43,614 bases of DNA, taken from positions 99,443,112-99,486,725 of the forward strand of contig NC_057718.1 of assembly GCF_004010195.1 (NCBI RefSeq). The letters are read 5' to 3'. Shown here piece by piece: positions 1,063 through 43,325 of the stretch (the stretch's first letter is position 1; every line of letters begins with the position of its first letter). The translations under genes were made by a program, and so were the position numbers. This DNA comes from Chiloscyllium plagiosum. Its lineage: Eukaryota. The notes below the pieces were generated by a model. The model saw only the letters and a program-made list of their open reading frames with translations, was not told the origin of the DNA and searched no databases.

Positions 1063-2918
1063 TCTTTTATTGCAAAAATATACTTTATTCATAGAAAAAA
1101 ATCTTTGGTACATATACAATTAATGAAGCCATTCAGATTGACACTTACAGAGAACGAACTAACTGACGTTCACCATTCTGTATATTTGCCGTCAACCTCT
1201 TGGTATTTAGCTGAGGTGTCAGCGGGGCCCAATTACTGAATGAGTCCCCATTATTCTTCAGCAGAAGGACCTCAGACGGTGGTCTTTCCCCATTGCGCCT
1301 TGGCAGCAATTACTCCAAGCTTCAGCCTGTCCCTCAGCACGTAGTCCTGGATCTTGGAATGTGTCCGTCTGCAACATTCGGTCAGGGTCAACTCCTTCAG
1401 CTGGAAGATCAGCAGGTTTTGGACCGCCCAGAGAGCGTCCTTCACCGAGTTGATGATCCTCCAGGCACAGTTGATGTTCGTCTCGGTGTGCGTCCCGGGG
1501 AACAGGCCGTAGAGCAGGGAGTCCCGTGTCACGGCGCTGCTCGGGACGAACCTCGACAAACACCACTGCATTCCTCTCCAGACTCCCTCTGCATAGGCAC
1601 ATTCCAGAAGGAGGTGTGTGACAGTCTCGTCCCCCCCGCAGCCACTTCGAGGGCAGCGTGCGGTACGGCTGAGAGCCCTTCTCACCACCAGCCAAGCCAT
1701 GTCTTGGTGCTTGTTGGAAAGTTCTGACAATGAGGCATTCTGCCAAATGGCTTTGACAGTCTGCTCAAGGAACCGCTCGATAGGATTTGCCCTCTCCTTT
1801 TCCCGAAGGGTCTGACCACTTCCTGATGGACTTGTGGTCAAAGGTGTTTTTCTTCATAAACTTCTCCACGAAGGACAGGTGATACGGAACGGTCCAACTA
1901 CTCGGAGCGTTCCGCGGCAGCGAGGCCAGGCCCATCCTTCGCAACACCGGGGACAGGTAGAACCTCAGTACGTAGTAACACTTGGTGTTTGTGCACTGGG
2001 GATCCACGCACTGCTTGATGTAGCCACACACAAAGTGTTGGGTGTGTTTATTCCTGCTTTGCCCAGATCTTTATACAACGAGTCCCTCCGGACCCAGTCC
2101 ATCTTTGATCTCCATATAAATTGGAAGGAGTCCCAGGTGACTGCAGCGGCACAGGTTCTGGGAATAGGCCAGACCTGTGCCACGTATAACAGCAATGACA
2201 GTGCCTCACACCTGATGACCAGGTTTTTTCCCGCGATGGAGAGCGACCATAGCTTCCAGTTTCTGCCTCACTTTGCTGATACGCTCCTCCCAAGACTTGG
2301 CGCACGCCCCAGCCCCTCCGAGCCAAATACCCAACACCTTCAGGTTGTCGGTCCAGAGGGTGAAGGGGATCGAGGATTGGTCGGCCCAGTTCCTGAAGAG
2401 CATGGTCTCGCTCTTGCCTCGGTTTACCTTGGCCCCCGAGGCCCGTTCAAACTGGTCACATATGCACATGAGTCTGCGCACGGACAGCGGATCCGAGCAG
2501 AAAACGGCGACGTCATCCATGTACAGGGAAGCCTTAATCTGCAGGCCCCTGCTGCCAGGAATAGTCACCCCTCTCAGGCTCGCATCCTTCCTGATGGACT
2601 CGGCAAATGGCTCTATGCAGCACACAAACAAGGCAGGAGGGAGAGGGCAGCCCTGCCTGACTCCAGATCTGAACTGAAACCTTTCTGAGTCCCACCTGTT
2701 GATTGAGACTGCGCTGATGTTGGTGTAGGGCAGTCGGATCTAATTGCAGACTCCCTCCACTAAACCTATTTTGGAGAGAACCTCTCTCATGTAGGTGTGT
2801 GATATCCTGTCAAAGGCTTTCCCCTGGTCTAGGCTAGTGAGGCAGGTGCCCACCCCCTCTGTCCAGCACGTAGGCGATCGTATCCCTGAGGTGTGCAAGA
2901 CTCTCAGTGATCTTCCCC
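1063..2918 (-). mobile_element. Tx1-clade (L1 group) LINE, 5'-truncated, frameshifted ORF2 plus 3' UTR
   Basis: RT motifs SLDQGKAFDRISH, MFVCCIEPFAESIR and LYMDDV. C-terminal zinc knuckle CPRSGCGGDETVTHLLLEC, stop at 1272. AATAAA signals near 1065-1090 on the minus strand. Confidence 0.9.
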
Positions 2919-2983
2919 TACTCGAGTATATACGGTAATCACGCACAAACCAGGGCAAATGCCTACAACATGCAGTAAAGGTG

Positions 2984-5520
2984 TTCACACACACGCTGTA
3001 CACACACACACCCTTTACACACACACGCTGTATACACACATGCACCCTGTACACACACACCCTATACACACACACGCTGTGCACACACACCCTGTACACA
3101 CACAAACCCTATACACACACATGCTGTGCACACACACCCTGTAAACACACACATCCTGTACACACGCACCCCGTACACGCACATCCCCTGTACACACACA
3201 CAGTACACACACACGCTGTACACACACATAACCTGTATGCACACACGCTGTACCCACACACACACCCCTATACACACACATGCTGTGCACACACACTTGT
3301 AAACACACACATCCTGAACACACCCACCCTGTACACACACCCAGTACACACACACTGTACACACACATACCCTGTATGCACACACACCCTGTATATACAC
3401 ACACACTGTATACACACACACTGTACACACACACCCTCTACACACACACCCTACACACACACACTCTGTACACACGCATACCCTGTACACACACACCCTG
3501 TACACCCACACACTGGACACACACACATACCCTGTGCACACACATACCCTGCACACACACCATGTACACACACACACACACTGTGCATACACNNNNNNNN
3601 NNNNNNNNNNNNNNNNNNNNNNNNNNNNNNNNNNNNNNNNNNNNNNNNNNNNNNNNNNNNNNNNNNNNNNNNNNNNNNNNNNNNNNNNNNNNNNNNNNNN
3701 NNNNNNNNNNNNNNNNNNNNNNNNNNNNNNNNNNNNNNNNNNNNNNNNNNNNNNNNNNNNNNNNNNNNNNNNNACACACACACCCTGTACACACACACAC
3801 ACACCCTATACACACACACGCTGTGCACACACACCCTGTACACACACAAACCCTATACACACACATGCTGTGCACACACACCCTGTAAACACACACATCC
3901 TGTACACACGCACCCCGTACACGCACATCCCCTGTACACACACACTGTACACACACACGCTGTACACACACACCTGTACACACACACACCCTACACACAC
4001 ACACGCTGCACACACACTGTACACACACATACCCTGTACACCCATACCCTGTACGCACATATGCTGTACATACACACCCTGTACACACACACACCCTGTC
4101 CACACACACGCCCTGTACCCACACATATGCTGTACACACAGACCCTGTACACACACATACCCTGCACACACATGCTGTACACACACACATGCTGTACACA
4201 CACATACCCTGTACACATACATGCTGTACACACACAGACCCTACACACACACACACACAGTACACACACATACCTGTACACACGCACGCTGTACACACAC
4301 ACCCTGTACACACACACACTGTACACACACATACCCTGTACACACACGTACCCTGTACATACACACGCTGCACACACACACTGTACACACACATACCCTG
4401 TACACCCATACCCTGTATGCACATATGCTGTACATACACACCCTGTACACACACACACCCTGTCCACACACATGCCCTGTACCCACACATATGCTGTACA
4501 CACACACACCCTGTACACACAGACTCTGTACACACACATACCCTGCACACACATGCTGTACACACACACACACCCTGTACACACACACACTATACATACA
4601 CACTGTACACACACACCCTGTACACCCACACACTGTACACACACACATACCCTGTGCACACACATACCCTGTACATACACACCGTGTACATACACACGCT
4701 GTACATACACACCCTGTCCATATACACACCCTGTATCCACACACACGCTGTACACACACACCCTGTATACACACCCTGTACACACACCTTGTACACACAC
4801 ATGCTATACACACACACCCTGTACACACACAGTACACACACACACACCCTGTACACATACAGTACACACACATCCCCTGTACACACAGTACACACACACC
4901 CTGTACACACACATACCCTGTATGCACACACACCCTGTACACACACACAGTATACACACACACACCCTGTACACACACAGTACATACACATGCTGTACGC
5001 ACACATACCCTGTATGCACACACTCTGTATACACACACACACTGTATATACACACACTGTACACACACACCCTGTACGCACACATACCCTGCACACACAC
5101 ATGCTGTACACACACACATGCTGTACACACACATACCCTGTACACACACACCCTGTACACACACATGCTGTACACACACCCTGTACACACACACGCTGCA
5201 CACATGTACGCTGTACACACAGACCCTGTACACACACACCCTGTACCCACACACATGCTGTACACACACACCCTGTACACACAGACCCTGTACACACACA
5301 TACCCTGTCCACACACACACCCTGTATCCACACACACCCTGTACCCACACATACCCTGTACACACAGACCTTGTACACACACCCTGTATCCACACACACC
5401 CTGTACGCACACACCCTGTACACACACAGACCCTGTCCACACACACCCTGTACACACACCCACCCACACACAGACACACACGCGCACAGACACGTACAAA
5501 CACACACACACGCACTCAGA
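2984..5520. repeat. (CA)-rich complex satellite, unit approximately ACACACACACCCTGTAC
   Basis: Directly visible tandem structure; source of the long H/T/C/V low-complexity ORFs. Confidence 0.97.
3593..3773. other. Assembly gap (181 N)
   Basis: Run of N inside the satellite. Confidence 0.99.
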
Positions 5521-6390
5521 GACACTATAAAAACACGTGGACAGAGATGAAAAGCTGGAAAGACAGTTTACTTGTTTCTGTCTACAGTTTCCGTTGAGTT
5601 GGTTCTTGCTGACCAGAACATTTCTCTCTGGCTTCCCATTCTCAAATGCTTGCCCTGGTTTTCAAGAGGCCCGGGGTGGATATTTCACTATACAATGTCT
5701 GTGATTTTTCTATTAGAAGTCACAGGTAATAGCAAACGCTGAAGGAAGCATGAACTGTGTTTTTCTCAGGTTGAAAGTGCATCTATGTGTGCAGGGTGTG
5801 TGTGTACAGTATGCATGTATGTGTACAGGGTGTGCATATGTGTACAGGTTGTGTGTACTACATATGTGTGTACAGGGTGTGTGCACAGTGTGTGTATACA
5901 GGGTGTATGTGTACAGGGTGTGTGCATGTACACTGTGTGTGTACAGGGTGTGTGTGTGTGTACAGGGTGCATGTGTGTGGGTGTGGGTGTGTGTGTGTGT
6001 CTCTGTGTGTCTGTGTGTGTGTCTCTGTGTGTCTGTGTGTGTGTGTGTGCATGTGTCTGTTAGTGTGAGTGTGTGTGTTGTGTGTGTATGGGTGGGTGTG
6101 TGAGTGTGTGTGTCCGTGTCTGTGTGTGTGTGGTAATGTGCATATGTGTGTTTGTAAGGGGCAGTTTATAATTTGTAACTGATGGTTTATAATTGTTTAC
6201 CTGTAGCTAGTGTCTAACTACATGTAATAAATAATAATTCTTGCAAGTGCAGGAACCCAGTCCGTGCTTCCAATCAACCAAGGTCTGAAAATCGTGTAAA
6301 TCGGGGAATATTGTGTTTAATTTATCTCTGGTGATGAATGTGAGAATAGTGGGGTTTGATTCCCCTTACCCAATGAACTGTGATCCCCTG
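5521..6390 (+). mobile_element. Probable solo-LTR remnant containing a (TG)-rich expansion (5785-6150)
   Basis: TATAAAA near 5526 and AATAAA near 6226 in LTR-like order; termini not resolved. Confidence 0.35.
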
Positions 6391-6946
6391 CAGAAGGGGT
6401 GGGGCTATGGGGTGGAATAATCCCTTCAAGTGAAATCTGATGGTGAAGACCCCATTATATAAAAAAAGAGACAAGGGAATCAAATGTGTTGGGCACGGTG
6501 TGGGCTGGAAACTTTGTGCCAGTGTGTGTGGGAGGTGTGGGGATGGCGTTGGAGGGGCAGTACGGCTGAAAGCCTTGGGAGCTCCTGAAAATCAGTGGGA
6601 TCAGACAGAGACTGTGCACCTCCACACTCCCATCTCCCCTCCCACACAGCCAGGGCGGTTCTTGGCATCCCGTCTTCCCCAGGTGCTTTCACAGCTGCGA
6701 AAAAAAACACTGATTCCTTCAAATATTTATCCAGATCATGAGGTCATTTACACTGAACGGTTTATAAAATTCATGAACATTATTCCCGTCCCCTTTAACA
6801 ACAATCTTTCAGAACAATGGCAGGTTTTGTTCGAGTGAATGCAGAGAATGTTCCCTCTTGATGGGAAGAAGCGACCTGGTGGCCATTTCAATAAAAGATA
6901 ATCACCAAGAAATCCAATAGGGATTTTGGGAAAAAAGTGTCTTAAA

Positions 6947-7930
6947 CCACAAGACCAGCATTAAGCCATTCGGCCCATTGAGTCTGCTCCTCCATTCAAT
7001 CATGGCTGACATGTTTCTCAACCCCATTCTCCTGCCTTCTGTGTGTAGTTTTGAGTCCTATATCTCAGGAAGGATGTGCTGGCATTGGAGGAGGGGCCAG
7101 TAGAGGTTTACAAGAATGATCCCGGGGAAGAAGGGATTGTCATATGGGGAGTGGTTGAGGACTTTGGGTATATACGCGATGGCAGTTTAGAAGGATCTGA
7201 TTGAAAATGACAAAACACTAAGAGGCCTGGATAGAGGGGATGTGGAGAAAGTGTTTCCACCAGGAGGAGAGAGGTGAACCTCTAAGCACGACCTCAGAAA
7301 TGAAGGGATGACCCTTCCGAACAGAGTCAAGGAGGAATTACTTCACCAGAAAGTGCATCTATGTGTACAGGGTGTTTGTGTACAGTATGCATGTGTGTGT
7401 ACAGGGTGTGCATATGTGTACAGGTTGTGTGTACTACATATGTGTGTACAGGGTGTGTGTGCACAGTGTGTGTATACAGGGTGTATGTGTACAGGGTGTG
7501 TGCATGTACACTGTGTGTGTACAGGGTGCATGTGTGTGGGTGTGGGTGTGTGTGTGTGTCTCTGTGTGTCTGTGTGTGTGATTCATGGGTGAATCTGTGC
7601 AACCCATCGCCACAGAAAGCTGTGGAAGCCAAGTCACTGAGTGTGTTTAAAACAGTGATGGACAGGTTCTTAGTTAGTAAGACATTGAAAGGTTAGAGGG
7701 AGAAGGCAGGAGAATGGGGTTGAGAAACGTATCAGTCATGATCGAATAGTGGAGCAGACTCAATGGGCTGAATGGCCTAATTCTGTTTCTCGGCTTTTGG
7801 TCATATGGCTCCTATAACCGTGATCCCTTTATTAACCTGTCCATCTCTGACTCAAATACCCAGTGACCCGGCTTCCACTGCTGTCTGGGGGAATGAGTTC
7901 CACAGATTCCCCAGCCTGTGGCTGAAGAGA
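6947..7930 (-). mobile_element. CR1 LINE 3' fragment, split by a nested opposite-strand CR1
   Basis: GCCATTCGGCCCATTGAGTCTGCTCC tail at 6966-7040; resumes at about 7810-7930 (GAATGAGTTCCACAGATTC). Confidence 0.75.
7041..7808 (+). mobile_element. CR1 LINE 3' end containing a (TG)-rich insertion at 7349-7580
   Basis: CTCAGGAAGGATGTGCTGGCATTGGAG (LRKDVLALE) through the 3' tail ATGGGCTGAATGGCCTAATTCTG. Confidence 0.85.
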
Positions 7931-9759: not shown

Positions 9760-10350
9760 AGCTGATCTTCATCACTCCCCTTGCTTACCTCTAGACTCGA
9801 TTGGTCCAGTGTTCTTCTGCTCAGTCTGCCACATCCAAACCTCTCTAAATCCGAGGTCACCTTAAACTCTGTTGCCCTTGTCCTGCACTCATAGCCCCTC
9901 CCCACCCCCGAATTCCATCGTAGCAGCCTAGCTCACCGACCGAGGTTAACCCCAGCAAAGCAATGTCCTGACTTTAAAATTCTCATCCTTGTCCTCAGGT
10001 CCCTCCATGACCTTGCGCTCCCTTTCTCTGTCACCTCCTCTAGCAACGCAGCACCCTGAGCACTCTGTGCTTCTCGAATTCTGATGTTTAGATCAGAGTG
10101 GTGCTGGAAAAGCACAGCAGGTCAGGCAGCATCCGAGGAGCAGGAAAATCGACATTTCGGGCAAAAGACCTTCATCAGGAATTCCGAGCTTTTGAGCATC
10201 TCCAATTTTAAACGCACCCGTTTTGGTGGCGAGACCACTATTTATTCGGATCCCGAGCTCTGGAACCCCCTTCCCAAAGCTCTCTGCCTTCCTCTCTCTC
10301 TTCCTCTCAGACATTCCTGAAAACCTCTACCCCTTTGGTTGATCTTTCGA
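9760..10350 (+). mobile_element. L2 LINE 3' fragment
   Basis: TTTAAAATTCTCATCCTTGTC (FKILILV) and CTCTGGAACCCCCTTCC (LWNPLP) motifs. Confidence 0.7.
10085..10178 (-). mobile_element. Single-arm hammerhead repeat (family A) inserted in L2
   Basis: Core CTGATGAAGGTCTTTTGCCCGAAA on the minus strand. Flanked by GAATTCTGA (10076-10084) and GAATTCCGA (10179-10187). Confidence 0.75.
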
Positions 10351-19504: not shown

Positions 19505-19620
19505 TTAGAAGTCAAAGGACACTAGGTTATACCCAACAGGTTTATTTGAAATCACAAGCTTTCAGAGTCCACCTGATGAAGGAGCAGTGCTCTGAAAGCT
19601 TGTGATTTCAAATAAACCAG
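19505..19620. mobile_element. Palindromic hammerhead repeat (family B)
   Basis: GGTTTATTTGAAATCACAAGCTTTCAGAG / CTCTGAAAGCTTGTGATTTCAAATAAACC inverted arms. Confidence 0.8.
19570..19604 (+). ncRNA. Minimal type I hammerhead ribozyme motif
   Basis: CAC-CUGAUGA-A-GGAGC-AGU-GCUCU-GAAA-GC-UU-GUG: stem I CAC/GUG, stem II with one G-U pair, palindromic AAGCUU in place of stem III. Confidence 0.7.
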
Positions 19621-21116: not shown

Positions 21117-22126
21117 GTTCAGACCCCCATAGCCTGGTGACAGCAATTCTGCTGCTGTATCTGCAGTGCCATGTTAGAGAAGAACGACTCCCCCCCCCCC
21201 CCCATCTCATTAAATGGCCAATTTGGAGCACATTTGGGAGGTTTCTAAAATCAATAATTTGAATTTACTCAGCTGTACCTTCCTGGCCTTTCTCACTGTT
21301 CAAACGCTAAATAAAGATTTTTGTACCTGTTGCTTTGGGAGCTTTGGGACTGTATGCAGCTGCTTTTTTTCTCAAAGAATCCTTCACCTTTTTGACCTCC
21401 ACCTACAGCACTGGGTCACTTGGGAGGTGACACACACTTTCATAGGCCAGGCCAAGCAGTCGGTTTCCTTTAGCTCCTGTTCACACACAGAGCCATATTA
21501 GCTCAGTTTAGGTACCATCGTTACATTCCTATGAGATTACGATACTTCAAGCTACTCCTGGGGCCTCACGCCTCAAGAAATGGGAATTTTCACTTGCTCT
21601 GTTCCATTTTCAAGGCTGTTTCTGCTTTGATACTGATCTCTAGTAAACCCTAGTGTGGGATTAACATCAAGAACTGCCACCCTGAAGTGCGACCTGGTTG
21701 GTCTCTGTTTTAAAACTTTTCAATTGTTCGTTTGACATCACTGATTGATAGGTTTTATTTTCGCCAAAGGGTATTAAGGGATATGTGTGGCTGTCCAGAG
21801 ATAGTTCACACATCGCTTTGAACGGTTGGAATGCCGTAAAGTACAAATGGTCTCCTTCTTTTCCTGCCTTCCAGGTTTTTGTAATCCTCCCTTTTTTGAT
21901 CTGTTCATGAGAAGTGGGTGTGTTGGACTGAGCTTGCATTTGTTACTCGTCCCTAGTTGCCCTTGACAAGGTGGGGGTAAGCTGCCTTCTTGAACCATGT
22001 AGGTAGGCCCACAGTGCTATAAGGGAGAGAGTTACAGAATTTTGACCCAGTGACAGCCAAGGAACAGTGCTACATTTCCAAGACAGGATGGTGAGTGGCT
22101 TGGAGAGGAACCTGCAGATGGTGGTG

Positions 22127-22250
22127 ATCAAGGGCTTTTGCCCGAAACATTGATTTTCCTGCTACTCGGATGCTGCCTGACCTGCTGTGCTTTTCCTGCA
22201 CCACTCTAATCTAGACTCTGATTTCCAGCGTCTGCAGTCCTCACTTTTGC
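22127..22250. mobile_element. Single-arm hammerhead repeat (family A); donor of the copy at 26503-26862
   Basis: AAGGGCTTTTGCCCGAAAC...CTGCAGTCCTCACTTTTGC. Confidence 0.85.
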
Positions 22251-22419
22251 CGTGTATCTGCTGTCCTTGTCCTTCCCAGTGGTAGAGATCCCAGGTTTGG
22301 ATGGCTCTTTTAGGGGAGCCCTTGGTGATGCTGCTTTCCCGCATCAGTGCTGCAGGAGTGAATGTTGAAGGTGATGAACAGGATGCCAGTCAAGTGGACT
22401 GCTTTGTCCTGGATGGTTC

Positions 22420-24996: not shown

Positions 24997-25199
24997 CAAA
25001 GTGAGGACGGCGGATGCTGGAGATCAAGTTAAGAGTGTGGTGCAGGAAAAGTACTGCAGGTCAGGCAGCATCCAAGGAGCAGGAGAATCAACGTTTCAGG
25101 CAAATGCCCTTCATCAGGAAACTTTTGCCCAAAGTGTTGATTTTCCTGCTCCTCGGATGCTGCCTGACCTGCTGTGCTTTTCCAGCACCAAACTCTCGA
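24997..25199. mobile_element. Palindromic hammerhead repeat (family A) with ~16-bp TSD
   Basis: TAGTAATCTAGTACGC (24981-24996) / TAGTAATCTCGTACAC (25200-25215); core on the minus strand near 25090-25117. Confidence 0.85.
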
Positions 25200-26084: not shown

Positions 26085-26940
26085 GGGATCACTGGGTAGA
26101 TGCTACAGGAAGGATATCATAAAATCGGAGAGGATTCAGGAGAGCTAGCAAGATATTGCCAGGAATGGAGGGCTTGAGTTATAAAGAGAGGCTGGATAGG
26201 CTGGAACATCTTCCTTAGAGCCTAGGAGGTTGAGAGATGACATTATAAAGGTTTATAAAATCAGTAGAGGTATAGTTAAGGTGAACAGCAAAGGTCTTTT
26301 CCCGAGGGTGGGAGAGCTCAAAACTTAGGGGCATAAGTTTAAGATGAGAGGGGAAAGATTTAAAAGGGTGGGTCATATGTCGGAGGAAGTGGTAGATGCA
26401 GGTACAATTCCAACATTTAAAAGATATTTGGGCAGGCACATGAATAGGAAAGCTTTGGATGGACATGGGCCAAATGCAAACAATTGGGAGTAGATTCGTT
26501 TATGCAAAAGTGAGGACTGCAGATGCTGGAGATCAGAGTCTAGATTAGAGTGGTGCTGGAAAACCACAGCAGGTCAGGCAGCTTCCAAGGAGCAGGAAAA
26601 TCAACGTTTCGGGCAAAAGCCCTTGATCACCACCATCTGCAGGTTCCTCTCCAAGCCACTCACCATCCTGTCTTGGAAATGTAGCACTGTTCCTTCACTG
26701 TCACTGGGTCAAAATTCTATAACTCCCTCCCTTATAGCACTGTGGGCCTACCTACATGATCCAAGAAGGCAGCTTACCTCACCTTGTCAAGGGCAACTAG
26801 GGACGTTTCGGGCAGGAGCTGCCTGACCTGCTGTGCTTTTCCAGCACCACTCTAATCTTGACAGTAGATTCGTTTAAGACACTTGGTCTGCTTGCTTTGA
26901 TTGGGCCGAAGAGTCTGTGTCCATGTTGTATGACTCTATG
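26085..26940 (+). mobile_element. CR1 3' end interrupted at 26503-26862
   Basis: TTGAGTTATAAAGAGAGGCTGGATAGGCTGG (LSYKERLDRL); tail TTGGGCCGAAGAGTCTG...GACTCTATG. Confidence 0.85.
26503..26862. mobile_element. Composite hammerhead-repeat insertion carrying captured flanking DNA, 14-bp TSD
   Basis: AGTAGATTCGTTTA at 26489-26502 and 26863-26876; 26504-26805 matches the reverse complement of 21948-22250. Confidence 0.9.
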
Positions 26941-27925
26941 ACATAGGAGCGGAAGTAAGGCCATTTGGCCCATCGCGTCCACTCCGCCATTCAATCATGG
27001 CTGATGGGCATTTCAACTCCATTTACCCGCATTCTCCCCGTAGCCCTTAATTCCTTGTGACATCAAGAATTTATCAATCTCTGCCTTGAAGACATTTAGC
27101 GTCCCGGCCTCCACTGCACTCTGTGGCAATGAATTCCACAGGCCCACCACTCTCTGGCTGAAGAAATGTCTTCGCATTTTTGTTCTGAATTTACCCCCTC
27201 TAAGTCTAAGGCTGCGTCCACGGGTCCTAGTCTCCTCGCCTAACGGAAACAATTTCCTAGTGTCCACCCTTTCCAAGCCATGTATTATCTTGTAAGTTTC
27301 TATTTGATCTCCCCTTAATCTTCTAAACTCCAATGAATACAATCCCAGGATCTTCAGCCGTTCCTCATATGTTAGACCTCCCATTCCAGGGATCATCCAC
27401 GTGAATCTCCTCTGGACACGCTCCAGTGCCAGTATGTCCTTCCTGAGGTGTAGGGGCCAAAACTGGACACAGTACTGCAAATGGGGCCTAACCAGAGCTT
27501 TATAAAGTCTCAGTAGCACAACCCTCTTGAGGTAAATGACAACATTGCATTCGCTTTCTTAATCACGGACTCAAACTGCATGTTTTCCTTTAGAGAATCC
27601 TCGACTAGCACTCACAGATCCTTCTGTACTTTGGCTTTATGAATTTCCTCGCCATTTAGAAAGTAGTAATGTGAACAGCTGTGGCCCCAACACTGAACCC
27701 TGCGGGACACCGCTTGTCACCGGCTGCCATTCCAAAAAAGAACCTTTTATCCCAACTCTCTGCCTTCTGTCAGACAGCCAATCCTCAATCCAAACCAGTA
27801 GCTCACCTCGAACACCATGGGCCCTCACCTTGCTCAGCAGCCTCCCGTGTGGCACCTTATCAAAGGCCTTTTGGAGGTCCAGATAGACCACATCCACTGG
27901 GTTTCCCTGGTCTAACCTACTTTTA
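26941..27925 (-). mobile_element. Relatively young CR1 LINE, ORF2 3' part with internal deletions
   Basis: VDVVYLDLQKAFDKVPH...SGVPQGSVLGPQLF and a 168-aa open C-terminal ORF (LYKALVRPHLQYCVQFW...WNSLPQSAVEA). Confidence 0.95.
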
Positions 27926-28489
27926 ACGCTCGCTTCTCCAACACCCTCACCGCCAACCTTTGCATCGAGTCCTTGCCCGTCTGAGACCTCCTGCCAGTCT
28001 GACCTCTTCACTGGTGGCCGTGTCTTCGGGAATCCAAATCAATGTCGGCTTCCCTCAACCCTTCCTGCCCTGCACCTCTCCCTCCCCCTTTAACACACTC
28101 TTTAATCTCTCCTTCTTTGATATAAGCAGTCCTCGTGTGTAGCGGTCTCACATTCGGTTTGCGTTTGGAGCTGCTCAAAGCGCGGACTTGCTGTTTGACT
28201 CGACTCTGTTCTCAACTTGTACCAGTGTTACACTTTTCCATCCTGACCTGTCCCTCACTCAGCTCCTGTCTTAACATGTCATTTCTCATCACGTTTTTTA
28301 TTTCTTTCTCAAACAGTTCACTCACCAGCAGGTCATTTACATTTAAGATACAAGTATATTTGTCTTCCCCACCTCCCTTGACATATTTATAAATTCAATA
28401 ACATGTATCAACTTATCATTAAGTTAATCCCTCCCTTCTTGGCTCCCAGAGTTTCATCTCATTTTCACCATTACTTGCCCATCCCACTT

Positions 28490-28896: not shown

Positions 28897-29412
28897 CGAG
28901 TTTTGAGAAGATTTGTAGCTCCAGTTGAGGTTCTGGATGTAGGTTTGCTCGCTGAGCTGGAAGGTTCATTTCCAGACATTTTGTCACCCTACTAGGTAAC
29001 ATCTTCAGTGGGTCTCAGGCAAAGCACTGCTGAATATTCCTGCTTTCTATTTTGTATGTTTGGGTTTCTTTGGGTTGGTGATGTTATTTCCTGTGATGAA
29101 GTCACTTCCTGTACCTTTTCTTGGGGGTGGTAGATGGGGTCTAACCTGATGTGTTTGTTGATAGAGTTCTGGTTGGAATGCCATGTTTCTAGGAATTCTT
29201 GTGTGTGTCTGTGTTTGGCTTGTCCTAGGATGGATGTGTTATCCCAGTCGAAGTGGTGTCCTTCCTCATCTGTATGTAAGGATACTAGTGAGCTAGAGTC
29301 ATGTCGTTTTGTGGCTAGTTGATGCTCATGTATCCTGGTGGCTAGTTTTCTGCCTGTGTGTCCAATGTAGTGTTTGTTACAGTTCTTGCAAGGTATTTTG
29401 TAAATGTGGGTT
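28897..29412 (-). mobile_element. Penelope-like element 3' part: GIY-YIG endonuclease fragment plus terminal region
   Basis: IYKIPCKNCNKHYIGHTGRKLATRIHEH...HHFDWDNTSIL...EFLETWHS...SINKH in ORF 28992..29453. Confidence 0.93.
28972..29011 (-). ncRNA. Decayed hammerhead ribozyme of the Penelope element
   Basis: CCA-CUGAAGA-U-GUUACC-UAGUAG-GGUGAC-AAAA-UG-UC-UGG. Stem I CCA/UGG and stem II are retained; GAAA is mutated to AAAA. Confidence 0.7.
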
Positions 29413-29536
29413 GTCTTCCTGTACTGGCTGAGGTTGCCACAGAGAGTATTCAACCTCTCCCCTTCCCTGAGATGAGGTGACCCTCAGGTTAAACTGCCAT
29501 CAATTGTCTGCCTCTCTCCCTTATGGTTTAGTAAAA

Positions 29537-29802
29537 AAAATATCAAAAATCGTGGCACTGGAAAAGCACAGCCGGTCAGGCAGCATCCGAGGAGCAGGAG
29601 AGTCAACATTTCAAGCATTAGCCCTTCATCAGGAATGAAGAGCTTATGCCCGAAACATCGATTCTCCTGCTCCTCGGATGCTGCCTGACCGGCTGTGCTT
29701 TTCCAGTGCCACACTTTTTGGTATTGTTTTACTAAACCATAAGGGATCCAGCCACCACTCTCTCGACTCTGATCTCCAGCATCTGCAGTCCTCACTTTCT
29801 TC
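29537..29802. mobile_element. Palindromic hammerhead repeat (family A) with an inverted target copy
   Basis: Inverted arms centred near 29632; TTTAGTAAAA at 29527-29536 and 29803-29812. Confidence 0.85.
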
Positions 29803-29923
29803 TTTAGTAAAACGATGCTGTCTTTACCTTACACTTTGTTTCTGTTTCTGTCCTTCCACAAAGATTTTGCATAACCATTGATAATGTACAGGCTTTTTGC
29901 AGGAGAAGGAACACTTTTTTAAG

Positions 29924-32568: not shown

Positions 32569-32773
32569 CTGAAAAATGTGTTGCTGGAAAAGCGCAGCAG
32601 GTCAGGCAGCATCCGAGGAGCAGGAGAGTTGATGTTTTGGGCATAAGCCCTTCTTCAGGAATGCCCGAAATGTCGATTCTCCTGCTCCTTGGATGCTGCC
32701 TGACCTGCTGCGCTTTTCCAGCAACACATTTTTCAGCTCTGATCTCCAGCATCTGCAGTCCTCACTTTCTCCT
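32569..32773. mobile_element. Palindromic hammerhead repeat (family A)
   Basis: About 90-bp inverted arms; imperfect TSD ATATTTATCCATCTG / ATATTTACACATCTG. Confidence 0.85.
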
Positions 32774-33310: not shown

Positions 33311-33520
33311 AAAGTGAGGACTGCAGATGCTAGAGGCCAGAGTTGAAAGTGTGGTGCTGGAAAAGTGCAGCAGGCCAGGCAGCATGCGAGCAGGAGAATC
33401 GACATTTCGGGCATAAGCCCTTCTTCATTGCTGACGAAGGGCTAATGCCCGAAACGTCGATTCTCCTGCTCCTCGGATGCTGCCTGGCCTGCTGTGCTTT
33501 TCCAGCACCACACTTTCAAC
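33311..33520. mobile_element. Palindromic hammerhead repeat (family A) with a perfect 14-bp TSD
   Basis: TCCCCTTATTGAAG at 33297-33310 and 33521-33534. Confidence 0.9.
33431..33460 (+). ncRNA. Minimal hammerhead ribozyme core, catalytic residues intact
   Basis: CUGACGA-A-GGGC-UAAU-GCCC-GAAA-CG-UC; stem I is poorly paired in this copy. Confidence 0.65.
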
Positions 33521-41134: not shown

Positions 41135-42020
41135 TCTTCCATTTATTCATTCGTAGGGCATAGGTATTACCCGTCCCTAGTTGCCCTTGAGAGGGTGGTG
41201 GTGAGCTGCCTTCTTGAACTGATGTAGTCCAGCTGCTCTGGGTTTGACCCAAAATACCATTAGGGATTCCAGGATTTTGATCCAGTGACAGTGAAGGAAG
41301 CCAATATATTTCTAAGTCAGGATAGTGAGGGGCTTAGAGAGGAACTTGCAGGTGGTAGTGTTCCCATGTCCTTGTCCTTCTAGGTGGAAGTGTTTGTGGA
41401 TTTGGAAGTTCTAGATACTAGAGGTCAAGGATTTAGAAGGCGTTGTCTAAGGAACCTTGGTGAATTTCTGCAGTACACCTTGAAGATGGTATACACTGCT
41501 GCTGCTGCTGTTAAGTATCAGTGGTGGAGGAGTAAATATTTGGAGGTAGAAAGGCTGAAGATTTGAGAGTAGGAAGAAGGGTCACTGGACTCAAAACATT
41601 AACTCTATTTTCTGTTCCCAAATGCTGCCAGATCTGCTGATTTCCTCCAGTAATTTCTGTTTGTTGAATGTTTGTGGATGTGGAGCGAATTAAGCGGGCT
41701 GCTTTGTCCAGGATTGTGTCGAGCTTCTTGAGTTTCGTTGGGGATGTCCCCGTTCAGGCAAGTGGGGAGTATTCCATCACATTCCTGACTTGTGCCTTGG
41801 AGATGGTGGGACAGGCTTTGGGGAGTCAGGAAGTGAATTACTCAGTGCAGACGTCCCTGCCTCTGACCTGCTCTTGGAGCCACTGTATTTATATGGCAAG
41901 TCCATTCAGTTTCTGGGAAATGGTAGCCCCCAGGCTGTTAACAGTTAATGATTCAGCAAAGGTAATTCCAGTGAACATTAAAGGATGAATTTAGACTCTA
42001 TCTTTTTGAGATGTAGTAAT
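41135..42020 (-). mobile_element. Old CR1-type LINE 3' fragment with a family C hammerhead remnant (41570-41665)
   Basis: Minus strand encodes KAQVRNVMEYSPLA...TKLKKLDTILDKAARLI; tail CCCTAGTTGCCCTTGAG. Confidence 0.8.
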
Positions 42021-43156: not shown

Positions 43157-43325
43157 TGGCTCCAAGAGCAGGTCAGAGGCAGGGACGTCTGCACTGAGTA
43201 ATTCACTTCCTGACTCCCCAAAGCCTGTCCCACCATCTCCAAGGCACAAGTCAGGAATGTGATGGAATACTCCCCACTTGCCTGGACGGGGACATCCCCA
43301 ACAAAACTCAAGAAGCTCGACACAA
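43157..43325 (+). repeat. Near-identical inverted duplicate of 41714-41882
   Basis: 169 bp with two mismatches found by eye. Confidence 0.92.

Follow-up and report, generated by a model that had tools for sequence, protein, structure and literature searches.

The closest described counterparts of the locus analysed here are insertions of EN+ Penelope-like elements (PLEs), which, in the accessible portions of two reports, have an inverted 5'-truncated copy and a one-sided tail of 30–40 bp (PMC8557442, PMC11167929); the same portions state that the completion of PLE insertions and the origin of inverted arms with a one-sided tail are unresolved. In the second report, both target strands are cut and then extended by the Anolis PLE protein, whose two RT start sites bound the tail (PMC11167929). 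In Adineta vaga, host sequence is captured between Penelope pLTRs within TSDs, and the accessible part of that paper also mentions non-coding captures between solo pLTRs (Arkhipova et al. 2013, PMC3846280). Somatic L1 insertions offer a further comparison: 22 cases among about 3,600 insertions carried templated sequence, with templates shorter than 250 bp, and an SDSA-like switch of the cDNA to nearby homologous DNA is proposed in what is available of that report (10.1101/2024.08.27.596794). Templated insertions have been reported both at L1 ends and at breaks, again in partly accessible sources (PMC11702581, PMC11724301). A full-text search, with most subscription papers outside its reach, returned no publication in which a PLE captures sequence from one of its sister copies at kilobase range.

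Our locus lies in a 43,614-nt stretch of Chiloscyllium plagiosum DNA (the window), and is a PLE insertion that carries, between its two arms, a patch of DNA copied from a neighbouring copy of the same family (Table 1). The 14-mer that makes up its perfect TSD, already recognised in the first-pass annotation, occurs nowhere else in the window. After deletion of the insert and one TSD copy, the site was aligned with three host-repeat paralogs: two of the alignments have no gap and the other has two small ones; because the insert-free site is colinear with these paralogs, this is a true insertion with a TSD. We take the host repeat to be CR1-like. The annotated reverse-complement match between 26504–26805 and 21948–22250 holds at 94.7% over 303 columns (E 1e-135 within the window); with the pair 26503/22251 added, the two copies differ by 16 mismatches and one 1-nt gap (17/304), and the gap between them in the window is 4253 nt. 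The described return through ACG to TTTCGGGCA is present and yields a 12-bp direct repeat, and the inverted arm is found where the second repeat ends. The ACG of the second repeat copy is common to the donor LINE, and against the family majority the shared stretch is 4 nt (GACG).

Table 1. Coordinates, in window numbering, of the recipient insertion, its donor locus and a sister insertion.
Feature	Position	Strand	Evidence or remark
Host LINE-like 3' fragment split by the donor arm; copied part 21948–22129	21900..22380	-	Paralog alignment over the empty site
Donor arm: one arm only, of the same subfamily and without a TSD; short microhomology at either end; box 1 of the core replaced	22125..22251	+	
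Host repeat 3' end hit by the recipient insertion	26127..26943	+	Paralogs at 10.6–11.0, 12.3–12.7 and 20.1–20.3 kb
Left TSD copy, 14 bp	26489..26502	+	Exact match to 26863–26876
Arm 1: PLE 3' end with full tail, stops in hammerhead stem II	26503..26615	-	Copy at 32660 ends at the same TTTCGGGCA
One-sided 35-nt tail	26503..26537	-	Not in the inverted arm, whose alignment starts at arm position 36
12-bp internal direct repeat, copy 1	26604..26615	+	
187-nt templated piece: remainder of donor arm, donor element/LINE junction, LINE 3' fragment	26616..26802	+	
12-bp repeat, copy 2; starts at the predicted hammerhead cleavage site	26803..26814	+	Spanned by a contig; site placed via the description in PMC4209133
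Arm 2: inverted, tail-less, 48 nt	26815..26862	+	Differs 2/45 from arm 1 and 2/45 from the donor arm
Right TSD copy	26863..26876	+	Crossed by contigs of organisms B and C
Sister insertion in which 20 bp of its TSD and flank recur in inverted orientation	29517..29812	-	29727–29746 against 29517–29536, exact

If one 12-bp repeat is deleted together with the 187 nt, what remains is an ordinary two-arm insertion whose arms measure 113 and 48 nt. Like the EN+ PLE insertions in the accessible descriptions, it has head-to-head arms, a 35-nt tail on one of them and a TSD, here of 14 bp (8–10 bp in the rotifer cases); unlike a standard EN+ PLE insertion, it has no ORF and holds an internal patch of neighbouring DNA. 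The tail-less second arm is shared by five of the five other two-armed copies aligned, whose alignments begin at arm positions 27–55. As in the Adineta vaga captures, insofar as these are described in the available text, unrelated DNA lies between direct pLTR pieces with one inverted pLTR, all inside a TSD; unlike there, the donor can be identified, 4.3 kb away in cis and with an arm of its own, and about 190 nt were moved (PMC3846280). The likeness to L1 templated insertions, again from partial text, is that a short piece (here 187 nt) was copied, that the donor was kept and that microhomology marks the junction. The published L1 templates, on the other hand, typically lie within 15 bp, whereas here the distance is 4.3 kb, the event is germline, the element is a PLE, and entry seems to have been by long homology to a sister copy (10.1101/2024.08.27.596794). 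The sister insertion at 29.5–29.8 kb does fall within the L1 template distance of 15 bp.

The repeat itself is the 3' end of a PLE, a 5'-truncated tail. The first-pass annotation had a non-coding element mobilise flanking DNA, but this is not an autonomous non-coding mobiliser: 6905 reads run on past the hammerhead core with common sequence, which makes the arms truncations of a longer element. Raw reads cover the arm about 28,600-fold; with 0.5–0.7 expected per copy, this puts the family at some 40,000–59,000 arms; this number and the chance estimates given below assume a genome size of 2.7–4 Gb. The family end motif had no match in viral contigs and none in metagenome contigs. A GIY-YIG-like C-terminal piece at 28995–29483 (- strand) scores slightly below the curated cut-off (E 2.7e-4). 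The end sequence that follows it is not that of this family, and the piece probably belongs to another PLE, with its own hammerhead-like end near 28990.

As in the min-HHR motifs of metazoan PLEs (Cervera and de la Pena 2014, PMC4209133), the family has a core box, one unpaired base, a stem II closed by G-C, GAAA, a palindromic CG and UH. Nine relaxed sites in the window were compared with the full min-HHR description (CUGANGA, an unpaired base, a G10.1-C11.1 stem II, GAAA, palindromic 15.2-16.2 and UH), and two of them, at 33431 and, with a G-U pair, at 25117, show every feature; Rfam gave no hammerhead model among its seven hits on the window. Unlike the published motifs, donor and recipient have box 1 replaced by GTGATCA, and cleavage is predicted from sequence only. 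The donor has also lost its CG, so that the earlier claim of a donor without an intact hammerhead core stands. The GTGATCA letters are probably those of the LINE at the junction. Their likeness to a C3G/G8C swap that partly rescues cleavage (PMC11167929) we take as coincidence, because both letters fit LINE sequence at that junction. The role that had been given to the dead donor core is unnecessary for read-through, uncleaved RNA being the main in vitro substrate in the accessible part of that study, and no explanation needs a dead core because hammerhead mutants insert normally in vitro, as the same part reports (PMC11167929).

The donor arm splits a host fragment that is presumably a LINE. 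Paralogs of this fragment at 41.1–41.5 kb and 42.4–42.7 kb align straight through the donor's empty site, and because the fragment aligns across that site the chimeric element/LINE junction arose at the donor. Copying in the reverse direction, from recipient to donor, is ruled out, since the host LINE is continuous across the donor only, and the order of ages of the two loci is likewise shown. Over 26625–26805 the recipient matches the donor at 174/181 positions, against 144/173, 116/157, 66/83 and 68/93 for four paralogs in the window (83% at most), and the templated piece has zero mismatches to the donor from 26606 to 26695. Within the LINE segment past 26629, donor and recipient share the non-majority letter at seven of the eight positions listed, all of them positions where most reads carry another letter, with 104 further rows beyond. 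The annotated mobilisation of flanking DNA from a neighbour near 22 kb is thus supported as to both source and direction, by the continuity of the donor LINE and by the shared letters. A 433-nt contig of organism C covers 26686–26805 with six differences and one gap and then departs from the window sequence; it is most likely the donor's orthologue.

As judged from these comparisons of sequence, only the element/LINE junction and the LINE piece are shown to be donor-derived. The variant end GCAAAAGTGAGG, which had been read as a donor mark, also occurs outside the donor: in run X1 the loose ends of 305 contigs fall at 26504 and those of 893 at 26507, and the end GCAAAAG is a subfamily end. The first base of that end is altered in the recipient (26503), where 347 of 425 raw reads show the donor's G. 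The arm matches the donor at 110/118 positions and, with three gap columns, the copy at 299 at 107/115. The first-pass annotation had held that the capture would fall if the two copies were no closer to each other than to the family; this is the case for the arm but not for the LINE piece, with its 174/181. Differences from the donor number 8/101 before the 12-bp repeat and 9/203 from the repeat onward; this lies in the direction that invasion of the donor predicts but is not significant (p = 0.29), and neither is the difference in divergence between arm and LINE (p = 0.45).

The region 26189–27178 was compared at 90% likeness with four of 24 public runs, namely contigs of organisms A, B and C and raw reads of A, where A is the same species from a different run and B and C are relatives; the small-share run X14 was left out. 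One A contig crosses the left junction (26411–26529) with no differences and another crosses the LINE-to-arm and arm-to-arm junctions (26744–26846) with one difference, both at a depth of about 7, which is that of the flank and thus single-copy. Among relatives, both outer junctions are crossed by C contigs and the right one also by a B contig. No spanning piece was found over the arm-to-LINE junction near 26625 among those listed for any run, nor over the inner junctions among those listed for B or C. Since independent contigs span the junctions in the same species and in two relatives, the insertion is old and no assembly artefact, in keeping with the earlier view that it is not an assembly duplicate (contigs over three of the four junctions, 5% divergence, outer junctions in two relatives). 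Segmental duplication is ruled out as well, the match stopping exactly at the element tip and within the TSD.

A and C differ at 20/413 positions (4.8%, three pieces), near the 17/304 between donor and recipient. The insertion is real, and its age is about that of the split between the A and C species; with small counts throughout, the divergences of arm 1 from arm 2 (2/45), of the copied LINE piece (8/177) and of A from C agree. Organisms B and C have a G at 26877, so the ancestral TSD may be 15 bp, or one G may be common with the element tip; the right TSD in C shows a CpG-type change at 26872.

The explanation we favour, and to which we give an even chance, is that the free 3' end of the newly made arm invaded its near-identical neighbour, copied the neighbour's flank and returned by a 3-nt microhomology. 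A Penelope-like RNP would have nicked both target strands 14 bp apart, and two cDNAs, one per RT start site, would have been made, giving the tail-bearing arm 1 and the tail-less arm 2; such twin priming is suggested by the Anolis PLE protein, with its action on both strands and its two RT start sites. Arm 1 would have stalled in hammerhead stem II, and arm 2 would have begun to be sealed onto the last 12 nt of arm 1. At this sealing step arm 1 would have presented a free 3' end of about 110 nt, then near-identical to a young neighbour 4.3 kb off. That end may have invaded the neighbour, with DNA rather than RNA as the template, and been extended by some polymerase for about 190 nt through the element/LINE junction before its release. 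The extended end would then have rejoined the other end by the ACG microhomology. The outcome would be an ordinary two-arm insertion with a templated patch between 12-bp repeats, and an unchanged donor.

Invasion by the end of arm 1 and its return by ACG would account in one step for both the closeness to the donor and the 12-bp repeat, and the nearness of the donor would follow because a homology search acts in cis. Likeness specific to the donor is limited to the patch, as invasion would have it. The sister insertion is direct evidence that insertions of this family involve local DNA copying, because its 29727–29746 is an inverted copy of its own target site. This insertion has a 10-bp TSD and a 58-nt tail-bearing stub, after which its second arm, the TSD and 10 bp of flank are repeated in inverted orientation, and it is a clean case of a fold-back copy run out through the primer into target DNA.

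At the same time, several observations speak against invasion, and some of them suit the main competing account, 5' transduction, which we regard as somewhat unlikely. A read-through RNA across the donor would have been reverse transcribed from an internal start at the tail, through the 127 nt of arm and 177 nt of flank, followed by a jump to a second PLE RNA, possibly at its hammerhead-cleaved 3' end; a nascent, tethered transcript would account for the short distance to the donor. The captured DNA sits 5' of the donor arm in its sense, exactly where read-through RNA would place it, and the return falls at the predicted hammerhead cleavage site, where the 12-nt stub starts with 4-nt complementarity to the majority sequence; this suits a jump of the RT to the end of a cleaved RNA. 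The donor is of the same subfamily as the two recipient arms, RT begins internally and uses uncleaved RNA in vitro in the accessible part of one report (PMC11167929), and the layout is like that of the rotifer captures as far as they are described (PMC3846280). Published L1 templates lie mostly within 15 bp and not at 4 kb, and ours is one event only, which also weigh on invasion, as do the non-significant difference between arm and patch and the PLE-free inverted duplication described below.

However, RNA dispersal does not predict a donor at 4.3 kb, only 0.01–0.016 such cases per genome being expected at an assumed 5000 transductions, and an extra template jump is required. Outside the junction the arm shares a single non-majority letter with the donor among four listed positions, a CpG change found in about a quarter of the reads. 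Moreover, no host exon gives a transcript direction: 329 stop-to-stop frames of at least 50 aa outside 2.7–7.8 kb gave eight Pfam hits, RT, zf-RVT, GIY-YIG, two ALKBH8_N and a weak SNaCT7 among them, and we accepted no hit as a host exon. Because donor, direction and both junctions are identified, the locus can separate DNA invasion from RNA read-through.

It is improbable, in our estimation, that the patch arose by later host repair, in which a break in a hairpin-forming two-arm copy would have been mended by SDSA from the inverted neighbour, with overrun and closure by microhomology, so that the PLE contributed homology only. Such repair would leave the same anatomy of 12-bp repeat and patch, and templated insertions at breaks, local and distant, are general in the available text of one report (PMC11724301). 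The window also contains a young local inverted duplication of a repeat fragment (41714–41882 / 43157–43325, 1.27 kb apart, two differences in 169 nt), the second copy of which has short repeated words at both ends; since no PLE arm adjoins it, such patches also arise without a PLE. Against later repair, the near-equal divergences of patch, arms and species given above leave little time between insertion and patching, although the counts are small.

The chance that one dispersed daughter lands within 4.3 kb of its donor is 2–3 x 10^-6. The least-covered bin of the captured piece has a depth of 26.7, or 37–55 copy-equivalents, part of which are LINE paralogs; at position 26786 the paralog letter is carried by 59 of 74 reads, leaving 21–31 copy-equivalents, and three contig sets give 18–27. 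These figures are upper bounds, and they exclude a large dispersed chimera subfamily. A small one, born at the donor and with a daughter nearby by chance, is allowed by the reads up to about 20–55 copies but is very improbable, given that most LINE-piece reads have paralog letters, that of the 24 longest pieces listed (with 278,799 shorter ones beyond) only two fall on the captured segment, being the recipient itself and what is most likely the donor's orthologue, and that even 30 daughters would bring the chance of one within 4.3 kb to about 10^-4.

The locus is one well-resolved old fossil of a known kind of capture, and the DNA that moved is junk: 190 nt of LINE debris, with no sign of function. 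The annotated local copy-paste route that shuffles host sequence is accordingly more than this one event bears out. Returning to homology-guided invasion, it is possible, though we lean against it, that the lineage routinely completes its PLE insertions by DNA templating within a few kilobases, including invasion of sister copies. If so, with at least 40,000 arms per genome, flanking DNA would have a permanent route of local copying and pasting, and the junctions of the arms would record the last steps of PLE integration, in which separately primed cDNAs are joined head to head and templates are borrowed. More boldly still, the return point might mark a jump of the RT to hammerhead-cleaved RNA and so be a trace, left in the genome, of in vivo ribozyme activity. 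A genome-wide survey of donor distance and strand is feasible because the family is very abundant.

Several other features of the window were seen. The B and C contigs depart from it at 26943, beyond which read depth is about 4,000, and the sequence from 26944 is a young high-copy repeat (with an RT piece at 27640–28038) that probably inserted here in organism A only. The arm at 10073–10190 is single and has no tail; to its left lies sequence similar to the end of the element core in reverse complement, with a GAATTC context on both sides. Another family is represented at 19546–19616 by a short, perfect hairpin that has a hammerhead-like core and to which Rfam gives weak miRNA-like hits only. 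Finally, 2900–7600 is a long GT-rich satellite of 15/17-bp units with inverted blocks and a gap of 181 Ns at 3593–3773.
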